A stretch of DNA of 63,869 nt, counting the filler, from Atractiella rhizophila (taxonomy: Eukaryota), in NCBI GenBank assembly GCA_021432655.1. It is 4 parts of 4 records of this genome, joined end to end, with 100 filler letters (N's around TTAATTAATTAA, not from the genome) between each part and the next. Parts side by side here need not be neighbours in the genome. Positions count along the whole stretch, not along the records: positions 1 to 26,048 come from MU271338.1; 3 more parts are not named here. One strand, 5' to 3'. A model generated the notes under the pieces. That model made no database searches. It saw only the letters and a program-made list of their open reading frames with translations, and had not been told where the DNA came from. Positions 1-62,398 of this stretch are shown here, in pieces (position 1 is the first letter of the stretch; every line of letters begins with the position of its first letter). A program made the position numbers and the translations under genes.

Positions 1-2575
1 AGACGCAGTTGGCTTGACCCTGTCGATCTCCCACTTCCATGTAGAGCACCTTTGCCTCTTCAAATGCCTTCAGAGCATCCTCATTCTTGCCATGGGCATA
101 AAAGCAATGGCCAAGGGACCTTGTCAGCGAACACCTTAGTCTCAACCATTCAGACTCTCTGTGACCCGGAAACAGGGGCATTCCCAGTGCCATGTTCACA
201 ACATGCGTCGCCCGTTGAAACAGTGAAGTTGAGAGCCGATGTTTCAAGCGTAGAAACTCCGATGTCTTCTCCAAATGCTGCAGGATTGGTAAAGGGTTTG
301 ACAGGCATAACATGCTCCTCAGCAGGACATGTTCAAGGTTTGGGTATTGTTTACGGAATTGAAACAGTGCGTGTTGATCCTCGTGGATCTCAAACTGTTG
401 AATATTTGTCTCAGCTTTCTGCATGAGGTGGTATGAAAGAGGCAGCAATGAGGAAGCAAGAGGTATCGAAAATGGTGATTCGGAACGGGAGACACAGTCG
501 TTGAGGTATTCACGAATAGGAGCTAGCATACGGAGAGTGTCTTGGAGACCATTGGCAAGCCCAATCTTCGAAATTACACCGACAACCTTGAAGATATCCT
601 TATGCTCATAAGAACTGGATAGGAGTGTTGACAAATCGTGGTAGGATAAACCGTCAGGCACCCACGACAGGAGGGCAAGCGCAAAAAAACCGCCCTTCCC
701 ATGCTTGCACAGAACCGGAGAATCGAGGGAGAACGATATGGAGGTTTTGAGGGTTATAGTGTCTTTGCTATCCTCATCCCATAAAATGCCAGTCTTTTTC
801 TCTTGCCACTCCCCTACCAATTCCTCGAGTGTCATGGTTGGATCCTCGTTGGCCCGTAGAGCAAATAGCTTGATGGATAAAGCATGGAAGTCCAGCTGTT
901 GAACTAGGCTTCTGACCAGCAGATGTGAGAACTCATCTTCTCGCTGATAAGAATCTGCAAACAGTTCCAGTGCACCGGCTTTCGGCAAACTTCCAACTGA
1001 GACCTTGACAAACTTCACCCACGCCTGCTCCTCCATAGGTGCGAGCTTCTTCACACCTAAAGACTCTACTTGATCTCCCCGATGGGCCACGACGAGCACT
1101 GACCCGCCTGAGTTGTTTGAAAGAAGTGTTCGGAAGAAGTCTCCTTTGTTGTCGTTGTCAGCACGTAGAGGAGTTTCAAAGTTATCCAGAACAAGAAGAC
1201 ATTTTCGACTTCCAAAGTAGGTGGCCACATTCTCCAGTGAGGTCTTGCTAGACTGAGACAGCGCGAAGATATCATTGCAAATGTGATCTGAAAGCCTGGC
1301 AAAGTTGTCAAAGTTGTCACAGCGAACCCAAAAGCGGAGATCTTCTCGAGTGCCTGCGAAGGCCTGCTTGATCTCCTCTGTGTGCAATGTGTTGAGTGCA
1401 ACAGTGGACTTTCCATTTCCAGATCCACCGACAATCGCGACGTGACGGCCGCTAAGGATAGCCTCTCTCGCAAGTTGGATTTCGGCCTCTCGCCCAAAGC
1501 AAGATCCTGGAGGCGGTAACGGAAACCTTCGACGAACTGCAATACGTTCACTGCACACTATCAGAACATCAACACAGTAACAAAACGGGAGGTGAGAGAT
1601 CATACCTTGTACGAGATGGTCAGCAGCATGACGAGCTTCATGACCCATCGCGTCCATATATGCCTTCGTACGACCGACCACGACTTGAGTTCGCTCCCAC
1701 TCTTCCCACTTGATGTCTCCCACTGTATGGACGGAGAAGCGGTGGTAGCGATGACCCAGACGGTGTTCTTGCATCATCATTTTCACCTGATTCGCAACGC
1801 GGGAGCAATCCTCGACGATGGCCTTCACAGCCCGCTCAATCTGAGCCATCGTATGGCCCAATGAGACAGCCTGAGCAAGGCCTGACCCCAAAGATACAAG
1901 ACAGGCAACTTGGCTTCTCTCTCCCCAAATCCTCTTTGACTCGTCAATCGCTAATGCAGCGGGGTTATTGTTTCCCATGGCGACATACTTCGTTTCGTCA
2001 ATGACGATAGGAGGGAAGAAGTCAGGATCAGAGGAAGTTGCTCTTGCTGCCTCCCACACTGCACATTGAGCAGCAAAGCGAGCTGCATGGCGGACGTCGT
2101 ACGTGCGCATCTCTGTCGAAACGACAGCGTCTGATTCGTATCTTGAGACAACGAAAGTTCTGCATCGATCTGCGATCTTGTCATCCTTCATAGGAAGATG
2201 GGACGACGGCACAGATGATGAAGGATGTCGAGCAATGATGTCGTGGAAGACGGCTTCGAGCATCTCCGCAGAGTACACATAGCCTCCTTTTGAGATTGGA
2301 GTTTCTTCGGAGAAGACTTGCTGCACGATCTGTTCGTACGCACGGATGCATTCTCGAACGGTCATTCCCAATCGTCCGAGCATGAGGGCAATCCATCCTC
2401 CTGTAGAAGTGCCACAGATGAGATCGAAAACATCGCAGGGTCGAACCTCTTCTCCTTCGGGAACGGCGAGGAGATCTCCAACTTGGAGCATGATGACTTC
2501 GAGCATGTAAAGCGTGGAAAAGGTACAGATGCCGCCGTTGTCAATAGCGAGGATTCGGACGCCTTGTGGGTTCAT
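1..2575 (-). pseudogene. Patatin-like phospholipase-NB-ARC(STAND)-TPR fungal NLR, frameshifted; 3' end runs off the window
   Basis: Manual minus-strand translation gives patatin (RILAIDNGGI, RPCDVFDLICGTSTGGWIALMLGRLGM, GNNNP), Walker A GGSGNGKS (~1405-1430), Walker B LLVLDNFE (~1180-1200), helical domain (SISFSLDSP..LLSWVPDGL..LRMLAPIREY) and a TPR (GKNEDALKAFEEAKVLYMEVGDRQGQANC, 1-110). Frameshifts near 2520 and 975; the DG of the catalytic DGG motif is missing. Confidence 0.88.
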
Positions 2576-5500
2576 CTTCTTGACATTCTCGGGGACTTGG
2601 AAAATCTTGACGGCTTGAGCTTGGGAGTAGGTGGGGGATGAGAAAGGTGTTGGAGTAGCAGTTCTGGGGGCAACCGGCGATGCGGTACGCGATAGGAAGC
2701 CAAACTGTGGGCCAAAAATTGTCGGTTTGGCGGTCAGGAAATGGCTGGGTTGAGAGTGCGGCTGCAGTACTGAAAGATTTTGAACTCCGACGCCTTCATC
2801 AGACGGTGGAACTTGTCGCGAACCGGCGGTGAATCCGTTGTCGTCATCAGATAAATTCCCAGGATCTTCATTGTCGCTGGGATTTAATGAAGAAGGCTTA
2901 GGCGTCTTTCCGAAGGCTGAGACGTCCATCGCCTAGAGCACGAGATGAAATCGATGACAATTGACCGAGAACTCCTCGTTGAACGTGAGATACGAAACTG
3001 AGGAAATAGGTCAGATCTGGACTAGAGCTACAAGGAGGGAGAGCAGCGAAAGGATACGTGAAACTGACTCTGAAGAAGAGGAAGAAGAAATAAGGAATAC
3101 AGTAGACAGCATTCCGATCCAAAGATCTACACGCATGGAAGAACATCCTTACGAACGTGAGGACGTAAGGATAAGAAGGGGAGGTCAACTTAGGGCAACT
3201 TGAACCATTTGTCAAATTGCAAGACCGAGGAACGAACGCTAGGAACAAGAAAGATGTCACGATGAACCAAGATCTCTTGCCTGAGAATTGCAGTTGTGGA
3301 TATGTGTTTGAGTTTGAGACAATGGAGATATGAAGGCTGCACAACTCGAATATCGAATTGGCAAGAGAGAGCACATCTCTCATCTCATCGTCGACAAGGC
3401 AAGAGTCAATAAAGACTCACTTTCTTCGACGGATCGTGTAGCAACAACCAACTGCTGGCACTTGACACTCGACGCGCAAAATCCAGGAACCAGGTTGCTC
3501 TCCCTGACAGCGTGAGAGAGGTGAGAGAGATGAGATCGATGAGAGATGCAGAGTGTTCGTTGATGGATGCAGACAAGGCTGGTTCCATTCCAGAAAGCCC
3601 TTGTTCATTCAAGTATTCAATATCATCCCACATCCTAAAGATGCATCGCCTTCAGGTTTACGTGAGCCAGAAGCCCAATGAGCAGGAGAGTTTCAGTGAT
3701 GGCGGGCGACAGCAGTGTCCAAAAATGACAACTGCAACTAGTAGAGTAGTATCCTGATAGACATCCACCAGCATTATGCATCCATGCTGATATCGCGGCT
3801 TCAAGTTAGGATGGCTTTACCTGCTGTTTATGCTTTATGCTTTAGCTTTGGAGTCAGTTGGAGCAAGTTGGAGTATCTATTTCATGCTTCTGATATAGTC
3901 GAGTTCCATGAACCCCTTTTCTCATGGCTCCTCACCGAAAGAGTGGAAAGCGGGATGCTGGGAACGTAGCCTTCATATTTAAGCCTCTCTCGTTTCCTCT
4001 CCATTTCCTTCCCTCCATCGGGCAATCTCACTAGAATAATCATTCGAACATGTTCCTCAATGCAATGGCAAGTCCACACTACGAGACCTAGTCCAGAGAG
4101 TTAGAAACCGTTACAAGCCACCTCTTTCGCGGTAACATCTGTAGGGTTGGCTGCTGTTACTGGAGAGGGAGGAGGAAAAGGAGCTAGGTTTTGAGGACTA
4201 TTCAGGGGTGGGAGGAGAGGCGAGGGGAGTTGAGCTAGAGGGAGTGAGGTAGGTAGAAGGGGCCACGGGAGGAGAGGTTTTGTGATTGTTGTCCGTCGAA
4301 GCCTAAGCATGGGAGGGAGCACAGACGGAAGCGGAAGCCATAGGAGCGTACTCTCTAGGTGTGACGTGGCAGGGATGTGGACTCGTTGTGGCGAGGAGGG
4401 GAAAAGGGCTGTTAGAGAGGGCCGCGGCACTAAGAGTGGTAGGGAAGCTTTCTCCTGCCGCTCCGAAGCTGTTATGGTGGCATCTCCTTGTCCCGCCCTG
4501 GATCGCGGAACGAGTTCTGAGGTCCAACCCTCAGCCTGCGCGCTTCGAACGCCCTCTGCCTCCTCCGCCGGAGATACTGTCCCAACTTCAGGGAAAGACG
4601 GCCAAACTCCTCCCCTGCCGACGCGTACCCAGGCAAAGGACTAGCACCTGGCCTCCTCTTACTTTTTTCTCTTCAACCTCCCTCCCTCCCTCCACACCTC
4701 TCCACGCCTCTCTCTCCCTCTCTCCACCTCTCCCTCTCTCGCGACCTCTCCCGAGATACCTACCTAACCTAGCTTACTCCCCACTACATCACGGCTATCT
4801 CTCTCCTAAACCAGAGTCAGAGCTTCCACCCGTCCCGCTTGAGCCTTCAGCGGGTCTGTCCTGGACGTAGTTTGACAGGGAAATCAGTCATGCACATGAT
4901 AGCTTCTGCCAAGCAACTTTTCAAGATAAAGCTAGCTTCTCTGCTTTCTTTCTCCCTAACTTCTGTGTGGAGAACCCGCCGGACTTTATGTCACTGAGGG
5001 GTGGTGAAGGACACGAGAAAGAAAGGTAGCGAGCGGTCTACCCTATTACGAGAGTATCCTAGGAGTTAGAGAGGCAGCAGCGGGTACTCATCGGTTAGCT
5101 CCCTCCTTCCTGGTCGTAGTGGTCCACCTGGCCCGATAAGTGTAATAGTAACCAGTCAATGCTGCATTATACTTACTTGTCCCTGACTTACTTCTTTTTT
5201 CCCTACTTTGAGTGTACGTCCTGCTCCTGCTCTACTAAGAGGGTCTACTGGAACCCTTGAGAGGACCAATTCTTACCTCGCTCATACTGCAGACCGGATC
5301 GCTCAAGCTGCCGGAGATAGTAGGAGAGAAGCGAGCAGGGTTAAAGTTGGCAGTGGACTCCTGCCTCCCAACACAAGGGATGTGAAAAGGAGGCAGTTCA
5401 ACCAACGAAAGTAGACGAGGACGAGAAGGCGACTGCCCTCCTTCCCTTCCAACCTGCCCGCCAACCTCGCTCCCTCCTCTCTTCACCTCCACTGACTCGC

Positions 5501-5960
5501 TCTCTCCCCTTCCCTCTCAGGCTGCCACCTTCATCTCGCCCTCACCCTCTCTGCCTCACTAACCGCCGCGCGTAGACGCTTCTTATAAAAGCTCAAAGCG
5601 ACACCGCAGCCACCGCTACCTCTGCCACCACTCCAGCTACAACCCTCCGACTTCTACCTCAAGACCTCCACCTACACCTCCCGACCCGCTCCCTCAACAT
5701 ACGACACTGCTCGTACTCCTTAGAACTCTCCACGAAGGAGGTACAGCCATAGGGACATAGCGATAAGCTTTACTGNNNNNNNNNNNNNNNNNNNNNNNNN
5801 NNNNNNNNNNNNNNNNNNNNNNNNNNNNNNNNNNNNNNNNNNNNNNNNNNNNNNNNNNNNNNNNNNNNNNNNNNNNNNNNNNNNNNNNNNNNNNNNNNNN
5901 NNNNNNNNNNNNNNNNNNNNNNNNNNNNNNNNNNNNNNNNNNNNNNNNNNNNNNNNNNNN

Positions 5961-8174
5961 CCCACCCTGGCCCACTTGCGTGGGAATGCCTCGGCTGGAG
6001 GAGTGGCTCTGGCGGCTGCGTGTTCGATGGTATGGATGGAGAACAGTGTAGTTTTGAATCCAAGCTACAGGTCTATGGGGTTGTACGGGAGCGAGTACCA
6101 TACCTTCAGCTATCGGGGGCGAATGGGGGGAGAGGTGAGCAAGAAGGTGTGTGTGGGATGTAAGCCGATGGGAGCGCGTGAGGCGGAACAGCTAGGGTTG
6201 GTTGATCTCGTCCTCAGCGCTGGAGAGGAGATGTGGATTCGCATCCGCACCTTAATTTCCGAAGGAGGAGGCAGGACCGGATGCGCGCCATGGGTGACGC
6301 GGGATCGAACACGCCTGGCGAGTCTGGAAGATATGGTCCTTGCCGCTAGAGAGCTAGATCCTAAGGACAGGGAGGAGGAGCTGGAACTGTTCGTTGAGGA
6401 AGAGATGAGGCAGATGCGCTTGTGCTTTTTCGCCACGGGAGAGAGGAGCGAGAGGTACCATGATCGCAGAAGGAGATTTGTGAGGAAGATCGAGGCACAG
6501 AGGACGCCTTTTAGGCTGGCTAAGCACAGGAGGAGAGCGGGCTGGGAGGAAGATTGGAAGGTTGGTTTTGTCCTGCCTTTCTATTCATTTGCTTATTTTC
6601 TGTTGCTTGGGATGCAGGAGAGAAAAGACGAAGAGGAGGATGAACATTGGTTTAACGACCCTCCAGAGGAGATCACGCGCACGTTGTCAGATACAGATCT
6701 TCCAGAGGCAGATTCCAATCGATACCTTAACGAGAATGCGATGCCGCATCTTTCATTCGAGCACGAAACCAATCATGTCGACCTGGGAGCGACGGCAGAG
6801 AGAGAACTCGAGAAGACGCCGGGATTCCAGGAAGGAGAGATCGGGTCTGTTGAGGATACCATGGAGCAGGAGAAGATTTCGTCGTCTCAGCATTCTGGAA
6901 CTCAAGTGAATGGAAAGGAGCTTCGTCTGGACGAGGAGGAGGAGAATAACCTGCAGTTCACTGTTTCACATCCGGAGCACGAGTGTAGCCATTGCGAACC
7001 TAAGGCCGCTACGGAGTCCGCTCCAGAAGAGAACGCAACTACGCCCATCGAAGAATTACCCGACTCTCCTCTGCTGAGAAGGAGACCTCCTGAGGTTTCA
7101 GAGGATATAGTGGCGCTGAAGCAAACTCTTCTCGAAAGTGCGGTGGTGACGCAGACCCCGAGCATAGGAAGAATGGATGTAACCTTACCTTCTAAACCTC
7201 TACGTCCTCGTACCCCGAAGAGCCCCACTGAACGCATCCCTGCGCCGGCTCTCATACCACTTCCCCCTTCAGCGACGCATCTCGATAGCCAACCAAGTTT
7301 CCTGGATCTCGCTGGGACACCAACAAACGATCGAATCACACTTCATCAAGGCGACTCGTTCCCTGTTCCCCCGCCTCCCAATCCTACACCCGTCAAGTGC
7401 CAGAATGGAGAAACATCAGAGCTCACTTCTAATGGACCTCAAAATCCCGACATGGTAGCAATGATAGCGAATGCGAAACCCTTGGATCCTGCCGGCGTGC
7501 TCGAAGAGAGGCATGAGAGACGAGGGAACAACCTGAGCGCCAGCGGACACTCCCAGAGGCCAACCGCCTCCTCTGGCGTCTCGATTCATTCTCCCGACAG
7601 CATTTCGCCGCCTTCCATCTCGATCCCTACTTCGCGTCCTTCAGCCAGAGACCGAAGCCCATCTCGCGTCTACATATTGCAAAATCATAATTCTAGGAAG
7701 AGAACAGTCTCGACTAGTGAGGCAACGACAACTTCGACACCGTCGCATTCGAGAAAACGATCTGGTTTCAGAACGATGATTAGAAATCTATTCCATAAAA
7801 ATTCTGGCAAATCTAGTGTCAATTCCGTTGCAGACGCGGTACCTCTTGTGCCTCCTTTACCCCATTCAAAAACTTTCGATCAGGCATCTGTCACTGTCCT
7901 CCGTAGTCCCCCTCTCCTTTCAATGGAGGAATTGGCAAAGCTCCAACCAAGCTCTTTGGCAAGAAGGAGATCATTGGACGCCAGACCTAGCAGCAGCAGG
8001 CTAGACGGCGCATCATCGGATGCAAGAACCCAGAATCGTAGAACGGTTGTGATTGTACATGACGATCCAGAATGCCCTTTAGGGGATGTTGACATCAACG
8101 AGTTAAAGGGTGGAGACAGCACTATTTGGAGGTGCTATAACTCGGCACAAGAGAATGGGAGGTATGTTGATTGA
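5961..8174 (+). CDS. HypX/HoxX-like protein (C-terminal enoyl-CoA hydratase/crotonase domain) with a long disordered C-terminal tail; 5' part in the gap
   Basis: GNASAGGVALAAAC..VVLNPSYRSMGLYGSEYHTF..PMGAREAEQLGLVD matches the HoxX/HypX signature GNAGAGG..LNPHY..MG.LYGSE. Probable in-frame 57-nt intron 6561-6617 (GT..CAG). About 500 aa of S/P/E-rich tail follows. Confidence 0.8.
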   Translation, partial: PTLAHLRGNASAGGVALAAACSMVWMENSVVLNPSYRSMGLYGSEYHTFSYRGRMGGEVSKKVCVGCKPMGAREAEQLGLVDLVLSAGEEMWIRIRTLISEGGGRTGCAPWVTRDRTRLASLEDMVLAARELDPKDREEELELFVEEEMRQMRLCFFATGERSERYHDRRRRFVRKIEAQRTPFRLAKHRRRAGWEEDWKVGFVLPFYSFAYFLLLGMQERKDEEEDEHWFNDPPEEITRTLSDTDLPEADSNRYLNENAMPHLSFEHETNHVDLGATAERELEKTPGFQEGEIGSVEDTMEQEKISSSQHSGTQVNGKELRLDEEEENNLQFTVSHPEHECSHCEPKAATESAPEENATTPIEELPDSPLLRRRPPEVSEDIVALKQTLLESAVVTQTPSIGRMDVTLPSKPLRPRTPKSPTERIPAPALIPLPPSATHLDSQPSFLDLAGTPTNDRITLHQGDSFPVPPPPNPTPVKCQNGETSELTSNGPQNPDMVAMIANAKPLDPAGVLEERHERRGNNLSASGHSQRPTASSGVSIHSPDSISPPSISIPTSRPSARDRSPSRVYILQNHNSRKRTVSTSEATTTSTPSHSRKRSGFRTMIRNLFHKNSGKSSVNSVADAVPLVPPLPHSKTFDQASVTVLRSPPLLSMEELAKLQPSSLARRRSLDARPSSSRLDGASSDARTQNRRTVVIVHDDPECPLGDVDINELKGGDSTIWRCYNSAQENGRYVD

Positions 8175-8544
8175 ATGTGTTGTAGTAATCCGTTGGAGTT
8201 TTCTGTTCCATCCATCCCCTAAAGCATTCAGCAAGCCTTAGCAATAGTTTGTCACATATTCATTGTATATAGAGAACCAAAAAGAACGATTCAAATGATA
8301 TTCTATTAGCACTAACAGACTCGTTGATTCCTTCCTGAGGGCCAGATTGTCCATACAACGATTTCAACTTGCAACTGAACACAAATAAAAATACACATCC
8401 ATGGGTATGCACATTGAATCAAAAGATGGACAGAAAGCCGAAATGAAAATTAGGAGGGTTCCTCCAGAGCGTTTTCGATGGGCTAAACTAATGGGCAGCT
8501 GGAATACAGGTGTCCATTGACAGAATACGGCGCGGAATACAACC

Positions 8545-9957
8545 TCAATAGGGGTCGTGACGATAATTTTGCGTAAGTTGATTGGCGGCATAGTAGCCAA
8601 ATGTGCTGCCATATGTTGCTGAAGGGGACGTCAGCAAGGAGCACGAGCAAACGACTAAAATCCTCACGATACACGAGTCGGGCTCGAGCCGCCGTCACAG
8701 AATCAAGGATGGGGATCATGAAACCTAAGCAGTTACTTCAGTCGCCTGAATGAATGTCAGGAGAGTGGATACTGACCTCCAATTTTCGCTCCGTTGTCTT
8801 CCATATTCTTCCAGTCTGCAATCTGCCGCACTTCCTCTCCAAGCGGATGATCCAGTTGGGCCATATCGTTGAATGTGAAGAGGCAAGGAAAGGTGGCATA
8901 AAATTTGGCTATGTTTTCGTCTTCTGCAGGATGGCGCGCATCAGTGGCCATCCATACCGGCTGGTTGAAGGGCTGGAGAAGAGGATTTGTGTGGAGAGGT
9001 GCGTGACATTCAAGCGTCGGAATGCTAATGTTTTCGGCAGGGGGTGACAGGATATCGCGACGTCGAAGTCTCTTCTCCATCGATACAGAACCAAGGAGCA
9101 TTTGGGACACATCCTGCACTACAGGCTTGACAGCTGAAGAATTTTGTTCGAAAACTGGAGTATCATCCTCCAGCGGATCCTCATACCAGCTCCAAGCCGA
9201 TTCAGTTCCTCCTAGACTCTTCCCACGCCATCTAGGGAGGAGACTGCGTTTACGATGATGCGAGAGACGTCGCTGCTTCATTAGCCGTTCTGACTCCAAT
9301 TCGCGCAGTAAAGCCATCGTTTGCTGAAATTTCGATTCATCCAAGGATTCAGAGCCGTTCGAATCGTCAAGGATTCCTCGGACCGTCCGCTCCCACAGTT
9401 CCTTCATATTCGCCACAACATTTGTTTTGAAAGACTTCACAACACTGTTTCAGGGATACTGTTTAAGATGGGTATAGAAAAAAAACCCACCCCATCTCCT
9501 ACTCGTACCAATATGCTCAAGTATCCTTTCTTCAAATTCCCAACCTTCATTCTCCAACCAGTCTCCCTTACACTTCTCGCTATCCACTTAGATATTCTGT
9601 TGATTTTTGGCTGATCGATTATGAGTCGCCCATTGTAATAAGGAGGGCGATGAGGGCCACCAATCTCAATTCGAGTGGAACCAAATATCGAGCCAAGAAG
9701 GAGAAGCTTCTGAGGCACTTCAGCCAGTGCTCTGAGATTGACGGTGCGACGAAATTTAGAGTCAACTCCTGGTGGGATGGGGGAGATGAGAGGCAGAGAA
9801 TGGTCACGAGGCAATGAGAATTGGAGATCGTATGGAAAGCCTTCATCTGCGAGAATGAACTGTTCATGGTTCTAGAGTCAGTAAAACAATAACAATATGC
9901 AAAAATTAAAATGTACAATATCCTTATTAGGATCTCCTCCACCAGCATCAAACAAAG
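8545..9957 (-). CDS. O-fucosyltransferase-like (GT-B) protein, multi-exon, 5' end in the gap
   Basis: Spliced ORFs 9437-9814, 8757-9440 and 8483-8719 give LRALAE..LLLLGSIFGSTR, YLSILVRVGDG, VWMATDA, FPCLFTFND, IPILDSVTAARA and a final exon PTYGSTFGYY..TGA (8545). These resemble the RxGD, ATD and STF motifs of the family. Confidence 0.65.
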
Positions 9958-14148: not shown

Positions 14149-16561
14149 TCAACATCTCAGCTGCTTCTTCTCCTTGAGCGACAATAACGCGGAATACTCC
14201 TCCTTCAATTTTTTGTTCTGCAGCTTCAGGTTATGTACTTCATACTGCCAGCTCGTGCTACCTCGCACTTCCAACTCCGCGAAGACGTCCGCGTCAGTGG
14301 CGCTGGAAAGAGCTTCTGTGTTGACAAAAGGGGGATAGTGTGGCGATGTGTGATGGGTGAAGGAGGAAGCAGGAGCTGAAGGGAGGGAGAAGACGTGATT
14401 CGAAGGGGCGGAGGCTGCCGCAGGATCGGATGGGTCGAATTCTGCAATATTGCAAAAAATGGTCCTCATCCCGTTCACCTCCCCTTCTGCTTCTGCCCCT
14501 CTTCCATTGGGAAACATGACTGAACGGACGTGAATGTCGAATCCCATCCCGGTCCTCAGGGTATGATGGACGCTTTGGACCGCCCCCAGTTTTAGTGTCC
14601 TCTCGATAGCAGAAAGAATTTCTTTATGACGCCGTGTGTCCAGTTCAGGTAAACATAGTCCGACGAATTTTTCTGCACTAGATCCAAGGAGACGTTCTGC
14701 TGCTGCAGTAGTGTATAGCACGATTCCGGTGGAAGACAATTTAACCCAGAAATCCCGGTTGTCTCTGGTAGTGGAAATTGACGAGTTGGAGCGAATGAGA
14801 GGCCAGGGCAGAGAATCCAGAGGTTTGATTCGTCCCACTAGGACAACGCACTAAAGCTCTCCTCAGTTTAAGTTGGAATTAAAACGGGTGAAGACGAACC
14901 TTCCTCCCTTTAGACTGTTCAACATCCAGCCTCCCTCTCGCCTCCATCCAAATGTACCCACTGGTCCTCTTCCTTACTCGGTACAGCAGCCTCACAGTTC
15001 CCGTATTCGTTATGTCCTTGATATCTCTCATAACTCCAACGACATCGGCTACAGCGCTCGATCAGTGCAATACTCTTTCAGACAAACAGGGAGGAAAGTC
15101 AAACCTGGATGGACATAATCTGCCCAATTCCGAGATATGAGGGAAGCCGCCTCGTATTCCACTGTAATGAACTTATCAGATTCGTTCTAATACATAAATT
15201 GAAGGACGACGAACGAAACTGCTCCGTGTTCGGGGAAACATAAAGCACCGTCCCTTTGAGCGAGAGAACATGAATGAAGTCGTCGCACTATCGCATCTGT
15301 AAGCCGCGCATTCTTTTCACGTATCAGTAGCAATCGACGCACGCAATCCAGCATCCACTCGTTCCACGCCCCTCTCTCGCTTTCATCCACTTCGATCCCT
15401 CCAGTCCCCGTTGACTCAACCGCCTGCACCGCGGAGGCCAGCATGGATTCAATATTTGAATCTTCTAGGATGGAGCGCTTCCGCTTCTTCCCACCGTTCC
15501 AGCCCATTCCTGTGGCTGCCACCCCAGAACCGATAGAAGTGAATGTATTCGACGGAGAGTCGTCTGACACTTCGTGTTCGCCGGAAGGGTGTGGTGGGAC
15601 ATTTGGGAGAAAGTCGTGTGACTGAGTTTGGGGATTGGTCTGTGACATTGCGAGCGAAACATCATAATTGAAGGTTTCAGCTTCTTCTTCTACCCACTGC
15701 GCTGCGTGTACCTCTGTTCCAAAACTCACTGTCGTCTGCTGGGCTAGAGTAGGAAACTGAGGAATGGTGGACTGTGTGACGGCATAATTGACGATGTACT
15801 ACTTTCCTTAGCAGTCATGCGCATTTAAGTGTAGGGAGGAAACTTACTGTCCCGTCCCTCATTCTTTCGACAATGCTAAACGGCTGCTCCACCAAATCAA
15901 CCTGCAATCCCACGAAATATGCAATCTCATCCGACTCCCACGATATTGGTATAATAGTCACCTGTCCAATGATACCATCAATCTCTCCTTAGAGAACAGA
16001 GCCATGACGGACAAGATTGATGAACGCTCTCCCATCCTTTTTGTAGTTCACAATAGAGGCCTGACACTCCCTTCCAGCCTTGATGAACTCCCTCAAATGA
16101 TTCACGGCTCCTTCATGGGTCCACTTTCCCCTTTCATCTCTGATACCTCCTTCTCCCATTCCCCCAGCAGAAGGCGTAATACCAGCATGAGGGACCTGTA
16201 AGAACCTACAATTCCTGCCCAGTATCTCTCCCCTCTCATACCCAGTCAACCTCTCGAACGTCTCGCTGCAATAAACGATAGGCATGTCCCACTGACGCGC
16301 ATCAACGACGGTGAAAGCGCACGACATGTCTATCGGCCCTAGGTTGATGACGGGATCCGGACGTGAAGCGACGCGGGCGAGGATGGAGAGGAGGTCGAAG
16401 CCTGAGGTAGAATAGAGGCCGGGGATATTCTCAGGTGGCGGGAGAGGGAGAGGAAAGGATGCGGCTAGAGCAGAGGTGGTTTCAGACGGCAAGCTGGGAG
16501 GAAGAAGAAAGATGGGATCAGTACGCAGGATCGGGAGTGGCAACATGGTCGTTGCAGCCAC
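14149..16561 (-). CDS. wc-1: White Collar-1 blue-light photoreceptor (LOV + two PAS domains, no GATA finger)
   Basis: GLYSTSGFDLLSILARVASRPDPVINLGPIDMSCAF..GRNCRFLQ (LOV photoactive Cys), NYKKDG.AFINL|VTIIPI..YFVGLQVD, PAS-B and PAS-C exons, C-terminal TSWQYEVHNLKLQNKKL coiled coil. Splice acceptor at 16562, so the start is either ATG 16546 or an upstream exon. Confidence 0.93.
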
Positions 16562-17189
16562 CTGAGGGGAAAAGGAGGCAAAAGATGGGAAGACACTCTA
16601 GAAAAAGCGACAACTTATGACGTCAGCAGATCCATCTTATGGCAGCATAGGACCACAAGCCACCAGGTTGTACTGAGAGCAACGAGTTTACACAGACTGT
16701 ACGCCTGATTTAGATCGAAGCACTCGTTCGATCAAAAACAAACCGGCACACAAGGAGTTATTCAATGCGACCATGAAAAATGCTTCCTTGAGATTGACCG
16801 AATTCATTTTATTCTTTTCTTCCTTTGCCACTTCTCAAAACGTACAAAATTCAATGTGTACTCTGTGAGAACTTTGAGTTGCTAAAGCACCGCATCTGAC
16901 ACAAGGAAGTCGAGGTACTGAATCTACACCATGCACACAAAGAGAACGATATTGTCAGCAGCATTTAATGTGGATGTAACTTTTACATATAATACATCCT
17001 CCTTTGCTACTTTTTCTTGTCTGCTATCCTGTCTTAGGGAGGCGAGGAGCCGACCAGTGACCCATCTCAAGCCCATCTGGAAGAATTAGAGCCAGCCCAA
17101 ACCGATCAGAAACGACGAAGGGGACCGTTGACTGTCTTCTTTCTTCCTCAATTTACACCTCAGGAGACGTCCCATAGCCGACAGCGCAT

Positions 17190-26048: not shown

Positions 26049-26148
26049 NNNNNNNNNNNNNNNNNNNNNNNNNNNNNNNNNNNNNNNNNNNNTTAATTAA
26101 TTAANNNNNNNNNNNNNNNNNNNNNNNNNNNNNNNNNNNNNNNNNNNN
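26049..26148. other. Artificial contig spacer (N-TTAATTAATTAA-N); same at 57323-57422 and 62283-62382
   Basis: Identical 100-nt N block with a six-frame stop linker occurs three times. Confidence 0.95.
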
Positions 26149-32578: not shown

Positions 32579-35500
32579 TAGGGACTCGCGTGAATGTGAA
32601 TAATTCATGAACAGTCACCATATCATTCGCCAAAAAGTCATGAATAAGGCGTTCATGAACTGGTGAACTGGTGACTGTGACTGTGACATGAACTGTGAAC
32701 GTCAGGCCAGAGAAATTCTTGAGTCATGACTAGTCATGAATAAGTCACCAGGCACAACTCATGTCGGCCGAAGTTATAGCCATCGTGATTTCCACAAGCC
32801 TCGTCTTCACTTCGTGATCAACATTCACGGATTCGGCTTCAGCCCTTGCTGGACCGGCTGAGGTTTTGAGGTGGGCTTTTCCTATCAACCAGCGAGAAGA
32901 AGAGGCTAAATGACTGCTCTGACTGCTCAGGAGGGCACTGACACTGGTCACCCAATCACAATTGACGAGGCTCTGACCAGCAACCGGTCAAGGGGGGACT
33001 CCATCTCTGGTAAGCTTTTTCTGCTGTATTTCCAACTTTCTCATACAACAACAGAACCTGTCATTGCTCCGAAGCAAAAGCGACTCCATGTCAAGAAGGA
33101 TAAGTCGCATTTGGACGAAGAGGCACGCTTGTAAGTACCTTGACTCTCCATTTGCTTCTCTGAACATAGATCAGGGAAGCCGATATCAAAATCTTGGAAA
33201 TCCTCTGTCTACGCCTATCATGATGCTCTGATGATTGTCAAGAAGGAAGAAGTGGAGGGAAGTGAAAAGAAGGAGGTTATTTATTATCGGTTTACTTGTA
33301 AGGTGTTTAAAGATCAGGAAGTCGACCGGAAAAGGTATGGGTTTGCAAGTGGGGCTGCAGCGACGTCACAACTTTTGGCAGGCGTTAAGGCATGTGAGGC
33401 AAAGCATGTGAAGTCCGGTGAGCGTTCAACAACACTGAATGAATTTGGGTATGCCTTCGGGGACAAGAGTGATGGAAAGAAGGATTCTGGAGATGGAAAG
33501 AAGAGTGGCATTCCGTGCTTCCCTTACTCCCCTCAATGCTTCCGATTCTGGCTCGCTCTCCTCTGTGCTCGATGTGAACGGCTGTTCAATATTGTCAAGG
33601 ATTACGAGCTCTGTGTCATCTTCAAGATGCTTCGACCTGATGTGCACCTTGTTAGCGCTGACCAACTCTCGAAGGATCTCTGGAACATCTAGAGTTCGTT
33701 CGGTACAGTGTTAGAACCCTGCTGTGTCCTGTATGCTGAGCTTCCCCACAGGCTGAGTGATTTGCACATGGGGAGATATTTGGCCAGAGAGATTGCAAAG
33801 GTGTTGGAGCAGTATGGTATTGACAGAAAGGTCAGTCTTGCTTGTCCTTTGCCGTGTCCATCAAATTGAACATGGAAATTAGTTGATGGGACTGGTGAGC
33901 GATAGTGCGTCAAACAACGACACAATGGTTTCGGAACTCAAGCTCTTGCTCCCCTCCTTTAAGGAGCAAGAATACCAAATCCGGAGCCTCAATCATGTCC
34001 TCAACCTGGTTGCAAAGGTATGTCCCTTAGTTTCTAATCACGTTTCTTACCTGACATCCTTTTAGGCTCTGATCTTGCCCTTCATGAAAGAGAAGAAAAG
34101 AAGGAAGAAGGGTGAAGAAACTGAGAGATTTGAAGATGATGGAGCTGTAAATATCAGCAAGGAAGAGGCTGCCACAATCGATAAGATAGTGGCAAGCCAT
34201 GATGCAGCACAGGAAGCTATGGATGATGAGATTATTGAAGAGATATCCGATGAAGTGTTGAAGGAACTGGAACAGGAGGATCTATTGAGAGCTGATGATA
34301 AGAGACTGAACATCAAGTTCAGTACGGAGGAGCACCAAGCTGTTCGTGGATGTGTTCAAAAGGTCCGTATAGCTTGATCATGTATTCTTTGCTTAAGACA
34401 TTGCAGATTCGGGAACTGTCTCACAAGATCGTTAATGGTAGCTTGATGAACACGGAATTTCAGCGTCTTGTGGAGCGATTTTACAAGAACCTTACAGATG
34501 CACGACTTCCAATCCGAGATGTTGTCACCTGTGGAACAGTCTCTTCCTCTGCCTCGAACGAGCCCTCCTGCTCCGACAAGCTTTCAATGGTCTTACAGAA
34601 CAGAGCTCATTCAAACTTGAGAAGTATGAGGTGATGGAACCCGAATGGAAAGTCTTAGGTGAATTGTGGGATGTTCTCAAGGTTTATCAATTGCTTCGAT
34701 TTAATCTGTGCAAGATCTGAGCCTGGTCTGCAGCCTTTCTATCGAGCTACGGTCAAGCTATCTACCAAGAAACAGGTGCTCCTTACTGACATAATCCCTT
34801 ATCTCGATAAGTTTGACCATAACCTTCGCAACATCAAGCTTAACCGAAATGTAAATCCGTTTATTCGGTTGGGTGCTTGTCGCATGATTGCGGTTCTTAA
34901 TAAATATTATTCAAAAGCTTGTCAGGAGACAAGCATGTATAAGTTGGCAATGGGTTCATCTCTCTTGGTTATTGTTACTGAGCTGATATGAACTTCTAGT
35001 ACTCCACCCTTATCACAAACTTAAGTACTATGAACACACAGGGTGGCTCACCTCCTGGATTCAAGATATTCGGACATTGCTACATGAGGAGTTCAAGACC
35101 TACCATCCTACTCCTTCCGCAGAGACCATAGTTGCAACTGATCTGCCGGATGAGGAGGACTCTGATGCAGAGGAACAGTTTCCATATCGAAAAGATTACC
35201 AGCAGACAGTTGAGACGGAATATGATGAGATCAGGCGGTACGTAGAAGATGACCTGGAGAAGACACGCAAGGACTTCAATGTACTGGCTTGGTGGAATGG
35301 GGAACGGGAAGGAAGCCGTTATCCTAAGCTTGTGAAGCTAGCAATAGCTGTGCTCTCCTGCCCTGGTGTGTACCATTTCCTTACTCCTTGCCTTCTGGTG
35401 ACCCTTCCTTAGTGACCGGTACCGATGCGGAACATGCTGTCAGCGTGGGAGGACTTCAGATCACCGGCCTCCAGCACAATCTATCACAACATTCATTCCG

Positions 35501-46544: not shown

Positions 46545-49315
46545 TAGGGTGCAGGGTAATACCTTACCGTTCTGCCATTCAGGTATTGCTAAAGGTATCG
46601 CCAATGTTCTGTCACAGCGACTTTTTTGTTCTGCCATTGTTCTGCCCGGTGGCCACATCGGTTAGCTGCCATGCCGTTTTGGGATCTTAATTTTGCGTGT
46701 AACTTTGAAATTTTTTTGATGTGCTCTATTTTTATTGTAATTGTTTTGTCTTGTGTTGTTCTTTTCAAATCGACCCCGTTACGAGAATGCCAAAACAAGA
46801 GTATCCACTCACTGCAAAATATTTCCTTCGTGTTAGCCAGAATCCTAAGAACAATTGATGTGAGTTACCGCAGAACTTTGGTAATAGAATGGAATGTAAC
46901 CTTGAGTTTCCTGTAGACCGCGTCAAGTGTAAAGCATGCAACAAAGAATTCGAGAGTCAGACAAGCATTGTCAAAGAACACCTGGCCAACAGTTGTTTGA
47001 AGATCAGCCCAGAAGATTGAGAGTATTGTGTCAACTTCATTACGATGCATGGCGCTGGAGATGCGACTCTGGATTTGGATCCTGACATTATCGAAATTAC
47101 TCTGGCCCCAGTTTCCAAGACTCACAACAAATTTCAGGTGGGAGTTCTACCTCTTCTAGCTTTGCCAGATTCTGCACAGCAAGTTTCTTCAAAGGGATCT
47201 CAATCAAAGTCATCCTGTTCACTTTCTAAAAAGCAAAAGACACTCCTTCTGTTCGGGATAGCCTGCCTTCTTGTCATTGACCCCTTTCCAAAATCTGTTG
47301 CCCAGATGCATGATAAGAGACTGCTCCTTGCAATGATAGACAATTCAGTATCATTTTCACTTGTTAATAACCCATTCTTTCACCGATGGGTGAACGGTAT
47401 TCAACCAAACTATAGTGTGCTTGAAGAAACAGCATTCAGAACAGATCTGTTAACAGAATTCTATGCTGACATTCAAAAGAAAAACATAGAGATTCTAAAG
47501 ACAGCCGACAACATCAGTCTTGGCCCGACGGATGGGAGGATCAGCAGAAGAGATCCATTTACCTATTGCTTGCAATGGTAAAAGGGCATGATCCTATTAT
47601 CCTCGAGCTCCAAGATCTCAGTGATGTCCGTCATACTGCTTTCTGTCTGCAACAGTTTGTCAATGAATCAATTGTTAGAGCTGGAGTTAGTTGGGACGCT
47701 GTTTCTTCTCTGTTTATGGATTCACCTTCTACAATGATAAAGTTATGGGCAGATCTTGAGAAAGAACATTCTTCATTGCTTATTGGGCCATGTTCTCTGC
47801 ATCACTTCACTCTTTTGATCCATGATATTTGTAGTTTTGTCGAAGCTTCTGCACTTATTAAAGAAAATTCTGCTATTATTCGCTTTTTACAACTTCTCAT
47901 ATTTGGAAAGCCAGATTAGGTGACATACGCAAGCTTGAGAATGTTACCCGTAGCTTGAGAAGTGAAGTCGCAACAAGATGGTACTATATTGGACATCTCC
48001 CTGTGCTCTTATTGGTCACAAGTATGATGTGTTAGATTAACCATTGAGCTAAAATGACTAGTTATTTACCAACAGTGCAGATTAACCCTTTGTACCCAAG
48101 TTCAACATGATGTCTATCTTTTCACTTACTCACAGATCCACTAATGTAAATGTTGGTATTAGGTCTGCTTTCAGAAAGATTAGCACACATTCAGAGGCAA
48201 CAAAGCACTTCGATCAAATGGATTTGGAGCAAGAGAAAGACCCCGATATCGGCTGGGAGAACTTAGTCGTCGAGTATGCAGTTTCGTGTTTCAAGAACTG
48301 GTTCCACGCCATCGATTCCGACCTCCTTTTCGTCGCCCTTTACCTTCATCAATGTGCTGTGGAATCGCCGTTTCCTGATACATAGTGAACTCTCGCAACC
48401 TCACCAATGTCAAATCCTTCTTATTTCAACGTGCGGAGCGCTGGAATCTTTCCAGCAAAGCCTCTGCCCTTCTTTGGGACAATGTCGACGGGTATCATAA
48501 CTCTTACAGTCTTCAAGCGCAAGCAATTGGTCGTGATCAAGCAATGGACCACTTACAACAAGAGAGAGAAAGGAGAAGGGAAAGAATTTCAACGGAGAAA
48601 AGGTGGAAGACAAGACAAGTTGGAGGCACAACCATCGAGGAGATTGAAGGTTTGTTTTTTCCAATTTCTTGACGATCTTGCAAGCTATTCACATTAATAC
48701 TGTAGATTACAACGAGCTGGAAATCATTGGAGACCTTGAGGAAGTTGTATCTGCCGATGAGGATCTTGTAACTTACAGCAGGAGTTGAAGAAGGCAAAGG
48801 AGGAAATAGCCGAAGTGACACAACTTGGACAAGAGCACCTTCCCCGACCCTCTGGCCGCTACAATCTCATCGCTTATGATGCGATGCTTTAGAATGGAAC
48901 AGCAGCTAAGACGACGAGACCGTCGTTGTCGGAACATCAAGGCACCGCAGATTCGTCGCCTGGAATGCAAGCGAAATTCTTTAAGTGAATCTCGCGAAGT
49001 CTCAGCAGCGACATGGCAACGAAGAGCGCTTCTCAAGGAGTGAAGGAGGGTCATCTTCTGTGGTATGCATTCCTGCAGCTTTCCCGATGGTTCTAAGAGC
49101 AGAAGATTCACGATCAGATGTCGCGAGCAAGTGTGCCTGTCTCAATTGACCATTTGAGCCGTGGGAATCCCTTTATTATATGCTTCTTTGAAATAAATGA
49201 TATTGCCTGACTGCTAGATATGCCCACAATCCTCTGAAACTGCAATTTAGCGTTCTGCCCTTCTGCCATGGCAATACCTTATGTTCTGCCACGCCCCAAA
49301 ATCGTATTGTCCCTA
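46545..49315 (+). mobile_element. hAT transposon (BED finger + DUF659-type transposase), degenerate, inserted in the satellite
   Basis: VKCKACNKEF..VKEHLANSC (BED), VSFSLVNNPFF, DGWED, RHTA, CSLHHFTL, VATRW; imperfect TAGGG/CCCTA ends and GTTCTGCC subterminal repeats; frameshifts. Confidence 0.8.
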
Positions 49316-52527: not shown

Positions 52528-55500
52528 TGTTAGTTGTAGTGTGTTGTTTTGGTCATCTGCCTCTTATGACTCTTATGACTCGTATGAGTCATCACTATGT
52601 AGTTTAGTTCTGCCTAGGAGTGTTGGTGCTCATTATTGACCACCAACCACTCCTAGCCTTAGATCCTTACATGGTAGCGAGAGCTAGTAGCTAAGATTAC
52701 ATTTGGTCACACCTATCACCTCCCCCCTCCTCCAGACCACAATTTTCACCCTCCTACACTCAAATTTCGCTCAATTTCGATGATCAGAACAGATTTGTGA
52801 TCCTCAAACATTCCTTTACCACCTTAGAAGGTTTCTGCCTACTCAGGAATCAAGAAATATAGAAATCTATCACCTTACCACCCATCACCTGCCTCAAAAC
52901 GCACTTTGCTGCCCTGGACTCAAACTTTGACGAATTTGGACGTTATAGGGCTTATTTTGATCGTGAAACACTGCGCTACAACTTTACTAAGAACCATCTT
53001 GGTCACAATAAGCGAAAATTTCGAGATAGCCACTCCATCACCTCCTTCATACCCCCAAAACATATTTTTCGACTTTTTGAAGTCAGATCTGGTCTGATCT
53101 GAACAATTTTATCGCCATTGGATTCACAATAGGCTATTCTACTATCCTACAACAGATCACCTTGATCAGAAGACTCAAAATTTCGAAATTTGCCACCATC
53201 ACATCATCATCACATCAGCCTCTATCACCCTTTCTGCATCACATCAGGGGATCTTAGGACTCAACCACACGGTCTAGGAAGATGTTTGGGATGGAAATGG
53301 CTCTTAATGGGTTGGAATTTGCTGGACTGAACAGTCTTGCTGCAGCAAATGATGTCACTATGCCTCAAGCAAGCCTTGACTGGATAGCAGACACTGGTGC
53401 AACTTCCCACATGTCTCCCCATCGTCATTGGTTCAGAACCTATCAGAAGAAGGTTATCCCTATCAGGGTAGCAAGTGGAGAAGTGATTTGGAGTGCTGGG
53501 ATTGGGAGCTTGATCTTTGAAGCCAAGTTGGAGGAGAAGAAGACCACTGCCATTACCATCTCAGATGTCCTACATGTCCCCAAGCTCTGGAACAACCTCC
53601 TGTCAGTCTTCAGGCTCACCATCTACAAGGGAATGAGGGTCTCCATCAAGCACAACAAGGTTCTCTTCTTCCAGCATCAAAAACTCTGCCTTACTGCCAC
53701 TGTGGACTACAAGAATGGAAGCATGGCTGGGATACTTGATGGGAACACCCTTCCTGCTCCAGAATTTGCTGGGAATGCTTCTACACTGCCTATGGATGCC
53801 TCTCTGTGGCACAGAAGACTTGGACATCTTAATTATGAGGACATCAAGCGTCTGAAGAGGAAATTGCTTCAGCGGTCGTCCACATTCGCAACAGATCTCC
53901 CTCAGCTTCGATCAACCATGCTATTCCCCACACAAAACTCACTGAACTTACTCCAACCATCTCAAGATTCAGAATTATTGGATGCACTGCTTACGTTCAA
54001 GTTCAGAAGGATGAAAGGCCACACAGCTTAGGATCTCACACTCGAAAATGCGCATTTATAGGCTATTCCCTTGCAGCGAAAGGGTGGGAGTTCTGGGATC
54101 CTGTTGGAAAGAAGGTCTACGTTCGAGACGTTGCCAGATTTGATGAGAGAGAGATGCTCTGCAAGGTCAGGAAGGAGAAGATTATGTTGGAAGAGCCACA
54201 GGGACCACTTGATGAGTGGAAGAAGCGTCAGGATCAGGTGGGAGATAGACAGAATAGTGCTCCAGCTGCTCCTCCAGCCAGGATTTCACTAGACGACGAT
54301 GACGAAGAAGAAGATGGATGGATTCAACAGCCAGGAGCACCAACAGCCAGGAGCACCTCTTACACCTCAGGAACAACCCAGACCGCTTGGAATACAGTCT
54401 CCAAATCGATTTCAGCCCCTTCAGGTCGAAGAAGAAGAAGAAGAAGAAGAAAGAGAGCCGTCTCCAGACCCACTACAGCTTCTGCCTGAACGCCCTAGGA
54501 CACCACCTCGTCAGTACACCATGCAGAGAGATCCTTGGACAGGAGTTCACATGCCTAGATTCTCAGAGTCTCCAGATCCACTCCAGATCCCCCGACAACA
54601 CCAGATCGACCTCCTCCAGCAGCTTCGACACCTCCCCCTGTCAACAGGCCTTCAAGAATTTATATTCTACGAGTAGAGGACGACCTGTAGACAGATTTAG
54701 GACCCCAGAAGCATCTAAAAGCAATGAAGAAGGATCAGCAGACGAGCTTGGGATGTTGGTAAAGGAATGTGACATCCTCACTGAGCCAGAGGCGATGGAA
54801 TATGGCTATATGCTTGTCACAGAGCATGCCATGAGTGCAGCAACAGGAGTAGAGGTCCCTCAGTCATATTCAAGAGCGATGGCAAGCCCTAATGCGAAGG
54901 AATGGCATGAAGCGACAGTAAAGGAAATTCAATCCCACTTGGACAACAAGAGTTGGATTCTGGTCAAGCCGCCTAAAGGAGCAAAAATCGTTGGTTCTCG
55001 ATGGGTGTTTGCGGTTAAGAAGAAGTCGGATGGTTCTATTGAGCGCTTCAAGGCCAGATTCGTCATCAAGGGGTTCTCTCAACGCCCTGGATTTGACTAC
55101 TTTGACACTTTCGCATCAACGGTCAAATGGGCGACACTTAGGACGATCCTTTCGCTCGCTTATGTCTTGGACATGGAGTTGGAGTCAGTAGATATCTCTA
55201 CGGCATTCCTCAACGGCGATATGGATGCAGAAGTCTATGCACAACAACCAGAAGGTCATCCGCAGGGTCCTCCAGAGTACGTTCTGAAGCTAATCAAGGC
55301 CATCTATGGCACAAGGCAAGAAGGGCGTCAATGGCAGAAGAAACTCGATAAGGAACTTGTCGATATGGGATTTAAGAAGATCAAGAGCGACTCTAGTCTG
55401 TGGATTTACTCGAAGGGGGACATCAAAGTACTTGTCCCGGTCTTTGTGGATGATATTACGATCGCTAGCACATCAAAGGGTGCTGTGGAGGACTTCAAGA

Positions 55501-57322: not shown

Positions 57323-57424
57323 NNNNNNNNNNNNNNNNNNNNNNNNNNNNNNNNNNNNNNNNNNNNTTAATTAATTAANNNNNNNNNNNNNNNNNNNNNN
57401 NNNNNNNNNNNNNNNNNNNNNNAC

Positions 57425-62282: not shown

Positions 62283-62398
62283 NNNNNNNNNNNNNNNNNN
62301 NNNNNNNNNNNNNNNNNNNNNNNNNNTTAATTAATTAANNNNNNNNNNNNNNNNNNNNNNNNNNNNNNNNNNNNNNNNNNNNGGCAGAGAATAACAAA

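Follow-up and report, generated by a model that had tools for sequence, protein, structure and literature searches.

A probable fungal-type HypX gene with a long C-terminal tail, interrupted by an assembly gap in Atractiella rhizophila

The gene at the edge of the gap and its relatives

The window analysed here, a stretch of 63,869 nucleotides (nt) from the genome of Atractiella rhizophila (assembly GCA_021432655.1), contains a plus-strand reading frame that is open from the edge of an assembly gap at position 5961 to a TGA stop codon at 8172–8174. Judging from its sequence, we consider it fairly probable that this frame comprises the two final exons of a gene for a fungal-type HypX, the front half of which would lie behind the gap, and that the encoded enzyme performs the HypX reactions in the service of a client that is not a [NiFe]-hydrogenase. 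The initial annotation had treated 5961–8174 as one uninterrupted frame. The frame is indeed open to its stop codon, but it includes an intron of 57 nt, itself in frame and free of stop codons, that had been read through. The public gene call P0003 (715 amino acids) also reads the intron as coding. It starts at an internal methionine codon at position 6027 and is truncated by the under-sized gap.

Parts of the stretch are contained in twenty-one public runs, four of which (X1, X3, X4 and X6) were placed on positions 5000–8600. X1 is a DNA run, X4 is RNA, and X6 is RNA from a root metatranscriptome. The kind of X3 is not on record; it was taken to be a transcriptome because it covers only 5961–8161, in spliced form. 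The intron was placed from two contigs that omit 57 nt: record 26 of X6 joins position 6557 to 6617, and record 10 of X3 skips 57 nt with GT..AG ends. The G+C content of the intron is 40%, compared to 58% in the preceding exon. The gene is transcribed and spliced, and most of 6920–8269 has RNA contig coverage from X4 and X6, at 90–99% identity.

Residues 33–45 of the encoded protein, NPSYRSMGLYGSE, constitute an NPSY...YGSE stretch that holds the catalytic tyrosine and glutamate. The initial annotation had reported that NPxY..MG.YGSE was retained together with both residues, and the motif is seen in frame and aligned to Tyr416 and Glu426 of HypX. In the PDB, the top match comes from Aquifex aeolicus HypX (6J0P and its variants), with a phmmer E value of 1.1e-18, whereas the best ordinary enoyl-coenzyme A (CoA) hydratase reaches 2e-5. 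The matched stretches of 6J0P are chain residues 402–487 and 527–577, the second of which corresponds to the C-terminal helix of HypX up to its HRR end. The tyrosine and glutamate of the window protein align with Tyr436 and Glu446 of the 6J0P chain, which are Tyr416 and Glu426 in the numbering of the structure paper (the chain numbering equals the paper numbering plus 20). The C-terminal helix, with its basic CoA contact and the HRR end, is present in the window. The equivalent of Arg542, which contacts CoA, is a lysine (FVRK versus FVRR), as it is in the fungal protein P0005. The catalytic stretch hardly departs from the family consensus. A close match to the family (RGNAxAGGVALAAAC) is also seen in the 22 residues that precede the methionine at 6027, and therefore the coding sequence extends to at least 5961. 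Chance is excluded as the origin of the frame, because the PDB match with an E value of 1.1e-18 is accompanied by a 518-codon open frame, the probability of which is approximately 2e-9 at the stop-codon frequency of the window.

The Pfam family ECH_1 matches residues 1–91 on profile positions 90–179 of 251 (E value 7.9e-11; 42.2 bits, with a cut-off of 27). Because only these profile positions are covered, the crotonase fold is severed in mid-domain by the gap. As a profile assignment, the ECH_1 match indicates membership of the superfamily and says nothing of hydratase function. In the study of A. aeolicus HypX (Muraki et al. 2019, PMC6802093), Tyr416 and Glu426 were proposed to mediate the decarbonylation of formyl-CoA, His74, Asp80 and Asp109 of the N-domain were proposed to mediate formyl transfer, and CoA was described as a constitutively bound prosthetic group. 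A 2025 review states that HypX makes carbon monoxide (CO) from N10-formyl-tetrahydrofolate (N10-formyl-THF) via formyl-CoA (PMC12134894).

With residues 1–201 as the query, 5.8 billion proteins were searched by means of a word index; 7,999 candidates were scored, and 309 proteins among them had E values of 0.001 or lower. Nearly all of the 120 listed proteins combine ECH_1 with formyltransferase domains, and many of them were named HypX or HoxX by their source. The best matches other than the protein itself are proteins of 700–770 residues with 39–43% identity, and the fungal names among the matches listed are Venturia effusa, Pseudovirgaria hyperparasitica and Tilletiaria anomala. When 1.84 billion cluster representatives were searched exhaustively, 504 matches had E values ≤0.001 and 214 had E values ≤1e-10. 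There is no close relative on record, since the window's own protein alone reached an E value ≤1e-30. The Atlas cluster found with the fungal protein P0006 has 206 members, 97% of which are from Eukaryota, mostly Ascomycota, and they contain ECH_1 and Formyl_trans_C domains. The statement of the initial annotation that HoxX-type proteins exist in fungi is borne out by this cluster and by the named species, and, as it had also stated, the literature search found no function assigned to them. No paper treating fungal HypX was found in the searched texts, which do not include most subscription journals; what they yielded was bacterial hydrogenase work, items in reference lists and an unrelated gene name. 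The 'hypX' of Penicillium marneffei was rejected as an unrelated gene that shares the name.

Relatives with NPxY...YGSE were sorted by length criteria that we set ourselves into 102 bacterial-type proteins, in which the motif lies before residue 470 and is followed by at most 170 residues, and 23 fungal-type proteins, in which it lies after residue 480 and is followed by 185–591 residues. The equivalents of His74, Asp80, Asp109, Tyr416 and Glu426 are invariant in all 52 sequences that were aligned (25 fungal-type and 27 bacterial). The fungal protein P0005 aligns with 6J0P along its whole chain (E value 2.3e-87). It keeps Gln15, Arg131, Ser194, Gln195 and Asn306, has a lysine in place of Arg542, and carries a 20-residue insert in its N-domain. 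By the measure of these alignments, the fungal-type family is intact HypX, the full-length members of which keep all five catalytic residues.

A tree was calculated from 63 rows: the first 215 spliced residues of the window protein, the 23 fungal-type proteins, and 39 of the 102 bacterial-type proteins, namely those with names, those that represent clusters, and every fourth one of the remainder. The calculation was a quick IQ-TREE run with the LG+C20 model over 577 columns, and the tree is unrooted. A branch with a support of 99 in the Shimodaira–Hasegawa-like approximate likelihood ratio test (SH-aLRT) separates the window protein and 21 fungal-type rows from the 41 others, among which are all 39 bacterial-type rows. 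The window protein is the sister of the 21 fungal-type rows (support 93). Two proteins that are fungal-type by length alone, P0176 and P0184, group with the bacteria. The window protein shares APW(V)T and MRLxFF, both in the variable part of the domain, with a subgroup that holds the basidiomycete Tilletiaria. The PDB match and the tree both point to HypX, in agreement with the HypX/HoxX assignment of the initial annotation, and the grouping with ordinary enoyl-CoA hydratases that it had named as the contrary outcome was not observed. It had further suggested a phylogeny against bacterial HypX as a test of horizontal gene transfer. The window protein does group with the fungal-type proteins and apart from the bacterial ones, but no bacterial donor can be named, because the tree lacks a root and resolves poorly at its base. 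An approximately unbiased (AU) test of placing the window protein with the bacteria is uninformative, since the protein sits on the connecting branch.

Table 1 Positions of the HypX-like gene, its landmarks and other features in the window
Feature	Position	Strand	Basis or remark
Assembly gap, 185 N	5776–5960	.	N run; splits the gene in the middle of the crotonase domain; under-sized
Incomplete exon: latter half of the HypX-type crotonase domain (CoA-binding, putative formyl-CoA decarbonylase) and C-terminal helices up to HRR	5961–6560	+	
Tyr codon, equivalent of HypX Tyr416	6066–6068	+	Alignment with 6J0P; invariant in 52/52 relatives
Glu codon, equivalent of HypX Glu426	6093–6095	+	Alignment with 6J0P; invariant in 52/52 relatives
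Intron of 57 nt, GT..AG, in frame, without stop codon	6561–6617	+	Spliced contigs X6 record 26 and X3 record 10
Last exon: 518-codon S/P/E/T-rich low-complexity tail and stop codon	6618–8174	+	Open frame, composition, strain differences
Acidic motif DEEEDEHWFND	6627–6659	+	Counterpart of DEEExDxFD in fungal-type relatives
C-terminal motif TIWRCYNS	8121–8144	+	Counterpart of (F/Y/W)xCYY; the last Tyr is Asn here
Possible 3' end of the transcript (weak hint)	8261–8269	+	RNA contigs of X6 and X4 end at 8261 and 8269; DNA run X1 continues
Patatin-like phospholipase and NACHT/STAND NTPase, fungal NOD-like receptor (NLR)-like architecture	2–2932	-	Pfam; long open reading frame running off the window start
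Three open reading frames, the last with a PAS_9 domain	14149–16597	-	PAS_9 E value 1.7e-12; roughly 6 kb downstream from the HypX-like gene
hAT dimerisation and DUF659 remnants	34987–35409 and 47470–47916		
Copia-type retroelement: gag-pre-integrase, Pol beta-barrel, RVT_2	53258–56453	+	RVT_2 E value 1.9e-59

The C-terminal tail and the hidden front half

The tail encoded by the last exon is rich in serine (63), proline (55), glutamate (47) and threonine (39), which together account for 204 of its 518 residues. Hydrophobic residues make up 17–28% of each 60-residue block of the tail, compared to 32–35% in the domain. No domain was found in the tail by Pfam, and blastp detected no similarity to the tails of other relatives past two short motifs (E values above 4). 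Three basophilic kinase-type patterns, RKRTVS, RKRS and RRRS, are present in the tail as pattern matches only.

Thirty-five relatives were examined for tail motifs, and 23 remained after the landmark patterns had failed in 12. The extension after HRR is 57–392 residues long in these 23 relatives and 527 residues long in the window protein, which has the longest linker seen. An acidic DEEExDxFD-like motif, identified by eye, is located 5–30 residues past HRR in 21 of the 23 relatives, and a (F/Y/W)xC(Y/A)Y motif, nearly always with CYY, is located 5–35 residues from the C-terminus in 22 of them. The acidic motif of the window protein starts 12 residues past HRR, with its spacing altered by two residues. 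The cysteine of the WRCYN motif is located 13 residues from the end of the protein, and both this cysteine and the first tyrosine are kept. Because the acidic and the cysteine-aromatic motifs are common to the fungal-type relatives, the tail is a feature of the family. The motif comparison identifies it as the C-terminal extension of the family, greatly stretched in this lineage, and not as the separate fusion particular to this gene that the initial annotation had described. A CaaX-type lipid anchor was considered for the cysteine motif and rejected, since the cysteine lies 5 to 35 residues from the end. In the relatives P0004–P0164, the acidic motif, 5–30 residues past HRR, usually ends with F-D-x-(V/L/I) after a run of aspartates and glutamates, which is the core pattern of Atg8-interacting motifs (LC3-interacting region/Atg8-interacting motif, LIR/AIM). 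The WFND of the window protein does not fit this core, and the link to LIR is an idea from the pattern only.

Sixteen of the 25 listed single-letter differences in the tail are synonymous, whereas approximately 24% would be expected from random change (binomial p value of 2e-5, or 0.003 when a generous 35% is assumed). The three insertions and deletions in the tail are 9, 3 and 6 nt long. The long tail is coding and is under some constraint. At several positions in the tail, about half of the sequencing depth shows other letters. Together with a second copy in X1 and contigs of X1 that are too different to be placed in 6264–6365, this suggests two diverged haplotypes or nuclei.

The N-terminal part of the relatives, approximately 460 residues, was not found anywhere in the window by tblastn with eight full-length relatives. 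Only positions 5964–6554 were matched, by residues of the relatives from about 457–523 on, with E values of 1e-21 to 1e-32, and the remaining matches in the window had E values of 0.1 or worse. Two contigs cross the edge of the gap. The last 180 nt of record 1 of X1, which is 523 nt long, lie on 5961–6140, and its first 343 nt match nothing in 5000–5776. Record 9 of X3 has 286 nt upstream of 5961, which match nothing in 5000–5776 either, and the two records agree on the last 30 nt before 5961. Because 343 and 286 nt of contig sequence lie off the upstream flank, either the gap is longer than 185 nt or its left flank is misjoined. The last 30 nt before 5961 contain no in-frame ATG and no stop codon in the frame of the gene; the latter is weak evidence, since they are free of stop codons in every frame. 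The initial annotation was right that no formyltransferase is visible in the window. The gap size of 185 nt on which it had conditionally relied does not hold, as contig sequence reaches 343 nt or more into the gap.

We infer that the under-sized gap would contain the formyltransferase half along with the first half of the crotonase domain, which together occupy about 460 codons in the relatives. The presence of a front half is favoured because the coding sequence reaches the edge of the gap and a crotonase fold cannot begin there. No contig of X1, X3, X4 or X6 was placed on 5000–5846, and such a hole proves nothing by itself. Upstream of the gap, the sequence TATAAAA occurs at 5584–5590 within CT-rich sequence. 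Its distance to the gap is 186 nt, with no intervening ATG. Another observation at the start of the visible exon concerns an RNA contig of X4, 461 nt long, that matches the window over 32 nt only (5988–6019). Its in-frame flanks resemble a diverged homologue, with HRK in place of the conserved RGN.

A search among proteins of 110–352 amino acids for fragments from the same species gave nothing nearer than 69% across a quarter of the query. A scan of metagenome contigs gave three loci with identities of 32%, 32% and 67%, the last over 18 residues. One of them, L001, is an intron-less bacterial-type HypX. Positions 1–1378 of the metagenome contig L002 contain a fungal-type HypX-like fragment in three blocks, with 49%, 29% and 32% identity to P0006. 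The three blocks lie in different frames, which indicates short introns in the L002 fragment.

Surroundings of the gene in the window

Approximately 62 of the 90 open reading frames (ORFs) of at least 110 amino acids in the window were scanned with Pfam; the rest mostly overlap scanned ones on the other strand. No hyp or [NiFe]-hydrogenase family was found among the scanned ORFs, and they gave no sign that the HypX-like gene sits in a gene cluster. The three minus-strand ORFs that end with the PAS_9 exon are probably exons of one gene. A protein kinase exon, a G-protein beta subunit and a subtilisin propeptide were also recognised by Pfam. The best named matches of the G-beta exon are 89–90% identical and come from Tulasnella, Rhizoctonia, chytrids and others, and a partial Puccinia protein is 93% identical. 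The fungal origin stated in the initial annotation agrees with the G-beta matches in fungi, the short spliceosomal introns and the NLR-like patatin-NACHT gene. The G-beta matches and the 57-nt intron fit a fungus, perhaps a basidiomycete. The filler joins of the window (26049–26148, 57323–57422 and 62283–62382) appear as six runs of 44 N, in three pairs with 12 bases inside each pair. The other runs of N in the window are 185, 985 and 337 nt long.

Proposed function, alternatives and comparison with known systems

To our knowledge, HypX is known solely as the supplier of the CO ligand for O2-tolerant [NiFe]-hydrogenases in bacteria, and we know of no [NiFe]-hydrogenases in fungi. The 2025 review (PMC12134894), in its abstract, speaks of [NiFe]-hydrogenases only as enzymes of bacteria and archaea. 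Based on the residues retained in the fungal-type proteins, the following mechanism can be proposed. The formyltransferase half would move the formyl group of N10-formyl-THF onto tightly bound CoA. The formyl-CoA would then be split, while on the enzyme, into CoA and CO by the crotonase half with its tyrosine and glutamate, and the CO would probably be set free. The recipient of the CO may be a client outside the [NiFe]-hydrogenases. The tail is most likely a flexible tether that could carry short docking or phosphorylation sites.

One alternative also accepts a true fungal HypX-type enzyme and differs in that CO would not be its physiological product. The enzyme would instead make or consume formyl-CoA in one-carbon metabolism. 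For example, it could shuttle formyl groups between tetrahydrofolate and formyl-CoA from the cleavage of oxalyl-CoA or 2-hydroxyacyl-CoA, or it could dispose of formyl-CoA. The same sequence evidence speaks for this explanation, and so does the lack of hydrogenase and hyp families among the scanned ORFs. Fungi make formyl-CoA in their oxalate and alpha-oxidation pathways, and they are not known to us to need a CO ligand. However, the fungal-type relatives likewise show no variation at the tyrosine and glutamate linked to decarbonylation. Furthermore, the CoA of HypX is described in the structural study as constitutively bound and not as an exchanging substrate, which argues against free formyl-CoA (PMC6802093). 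We regard a formyl-CoA enzyme of this kind as rather unlikely.

Several observations weigh against the reading of the locus as the end of a fungal-type HypX gene with HypX chemistry. The N-terminal half of the gene is unseen in the window, and the metagenome contigs gave only relatives with 32% identity. The 30 nt before 5961 are CT-rich, and the 9-mer CTCGTACTC within them recurs at 5710–5718, 58 nt before the gap (two occurrences in the window, with 0.24 expected); they could therefore be non-coding. In the covered part of the domain exon, six of the nine listed differences change a residue and three are synonymous. The listed coding differences that were classified number 34 (25 in the tail and nine in the domain exon), and 57 more stand outside this list. 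A second copy in X1, about 91% identical over 5976–6140, lacks one nucleotide at 6060. Insertions of one nucleotide each, at 6289 and 6309, are seen in an X4 contig, which is RNA. Positions 6264–6365 are too different between the copies to be placed. The last tyrosine of CYY, which is kept in all 22 motif-bearing relatives, is an asparagine in the window protein (CYN), and the acidic motif is altered from its family form. The branch of the window protein is the longest of the clade (0.89), and its identity to any relative is 47% or lower.

Many of these points can be explained if the locus is a truncated and decaying copy, in which a non-enzymatic remnant starting at the methionine at 6027 is followed by the disordered tail, and from which the formyltransferase and the first half of the crotonase domain were lost. 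The sequence just before 5961 is CT-rich like the promoter-like flank and has CTCGTACTC in common with it, and the public gene call starts at the methionine at 6027. The long branch, the altered tail motifs, and the single-base insertions and deletions in the second copy and in the related RNA contig would also be expected from a gene in decay. Nevertheless, the methionine at 6027 is preceded by 22 family-like residues, and the next 30 nt upstream contain no in-frame ATG. The catalytic stretch is nearly the family consensus, the differences in the tail are enriched for synonymous ones, and several runs show the gene to be expressed and spliced. The decay of the gene is thus an unlikely explanation. 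It is highly improbable that the locus encodes an ordinary enoyl-CoA hydratase or isomerase of fatty-acid metabolism with a disordered tail: ECH_1 is the only Pfam name for the window protein, NCBIfam gives generic hydratase models alone, all far under their cut-offs, and an Atlas search with the 201-residue fragment led to generic ECH clusters only, but this explanation is already contradicted by the PDB, in which HypX beats every hydratase by 13 orders of magnitude, by the 309 matched proteins, nearly all listed ones of which are HypX-type two-domain proteins, and by the tree, which puts the window protein among fungal-type HypX. The generic library names carry no weight against HypX because NCBIfam has no HypX model, and bacterial HypX likewise receives only fmt and generic ECH matches under the cut-offs.

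We therefore return to the fungal-type HypX gene with its front half behind the gap. The locus is a real gene that is expressed, and its long tail is part of the encoded protein. Among the members of a fungal HypX variant that is uncharacterised, the gene is a divergent one, and the window gives a truncated view of this variant. A large fungal clade keeps every catalytic residue, and therefore points to a second use of the enzymatic formation of CO or formyl-CoA in eukaryotes. We speculate, with considerable doubt, that Dikarya might carry a dedicated, haem-oxygenase-independent CO synthase, which would be derived from HypX and would make CO from N10-formyl-THF for a client other than hydrogenase, such as a signal, a ligand of a metal centre or a weapon against neighbours. 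The tail motifs of the fungal proteins could direct or gate such an enzyme. The gene in the window would be its most divergent member, with a 500-residue tether, expressed in root-associated communities.

The N-domain of 10-formyl-THF dehydrogenase (FDH/ALDH1L1) provides one comparison. FDH oxidises the formyl group to CO2, without the release of CO. According to the structural study, the N-domain of HypX uses the same kind of triad as that of FDH and transfers the formyl group from N10-formyl-THF to a pantetheine thiol (PMC6802093). The likeness concerns the half of the protein that is outside the visible sequence of the window. The closest known systems are the HypX proteins of aerobic, H2-oxidising bacteria (A. 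aeolicus, 6J0P; Cupriavidus necator; Rhizobium leguminosarum), which have the same crotonase-fold C-domain with the tyrosine-glutamate pair and the same C-terminal helix, YH..R..FVR(R/K)...TP...HRR. The full-length fungal relatives align with bacterial HypX from end to end and keep its His-Asp-Asp triad and CoA contacts; they differ from it in the 20-residue insert in the N-domain. In contrast to bacterial HypX, the gene in the window is eukaryotic and contains an intron, has no hyp or hydrogenase gene near it among the scanned ORFs, and encodes 527 residues after HRR. The 102 bacterial-type proteins have at most 170 residues after YGSE, and hence little past HRR. The uncharacterised fungal proteins annotated as 'ClpP/crotonase' or 'formyl transferase C-terminal domain' (for example FKW77_008537 of V. 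effusa, that of P. hyperparasitica, and K437DRAFT_266020 of T. anomala) belong to the same clade as the window protein and have counterparts of its acidic and cysteine-aromatic tail motifs. The window protein is at most 47% identical to them and is distinguished by its longer linker and by CYN in place of CYY.

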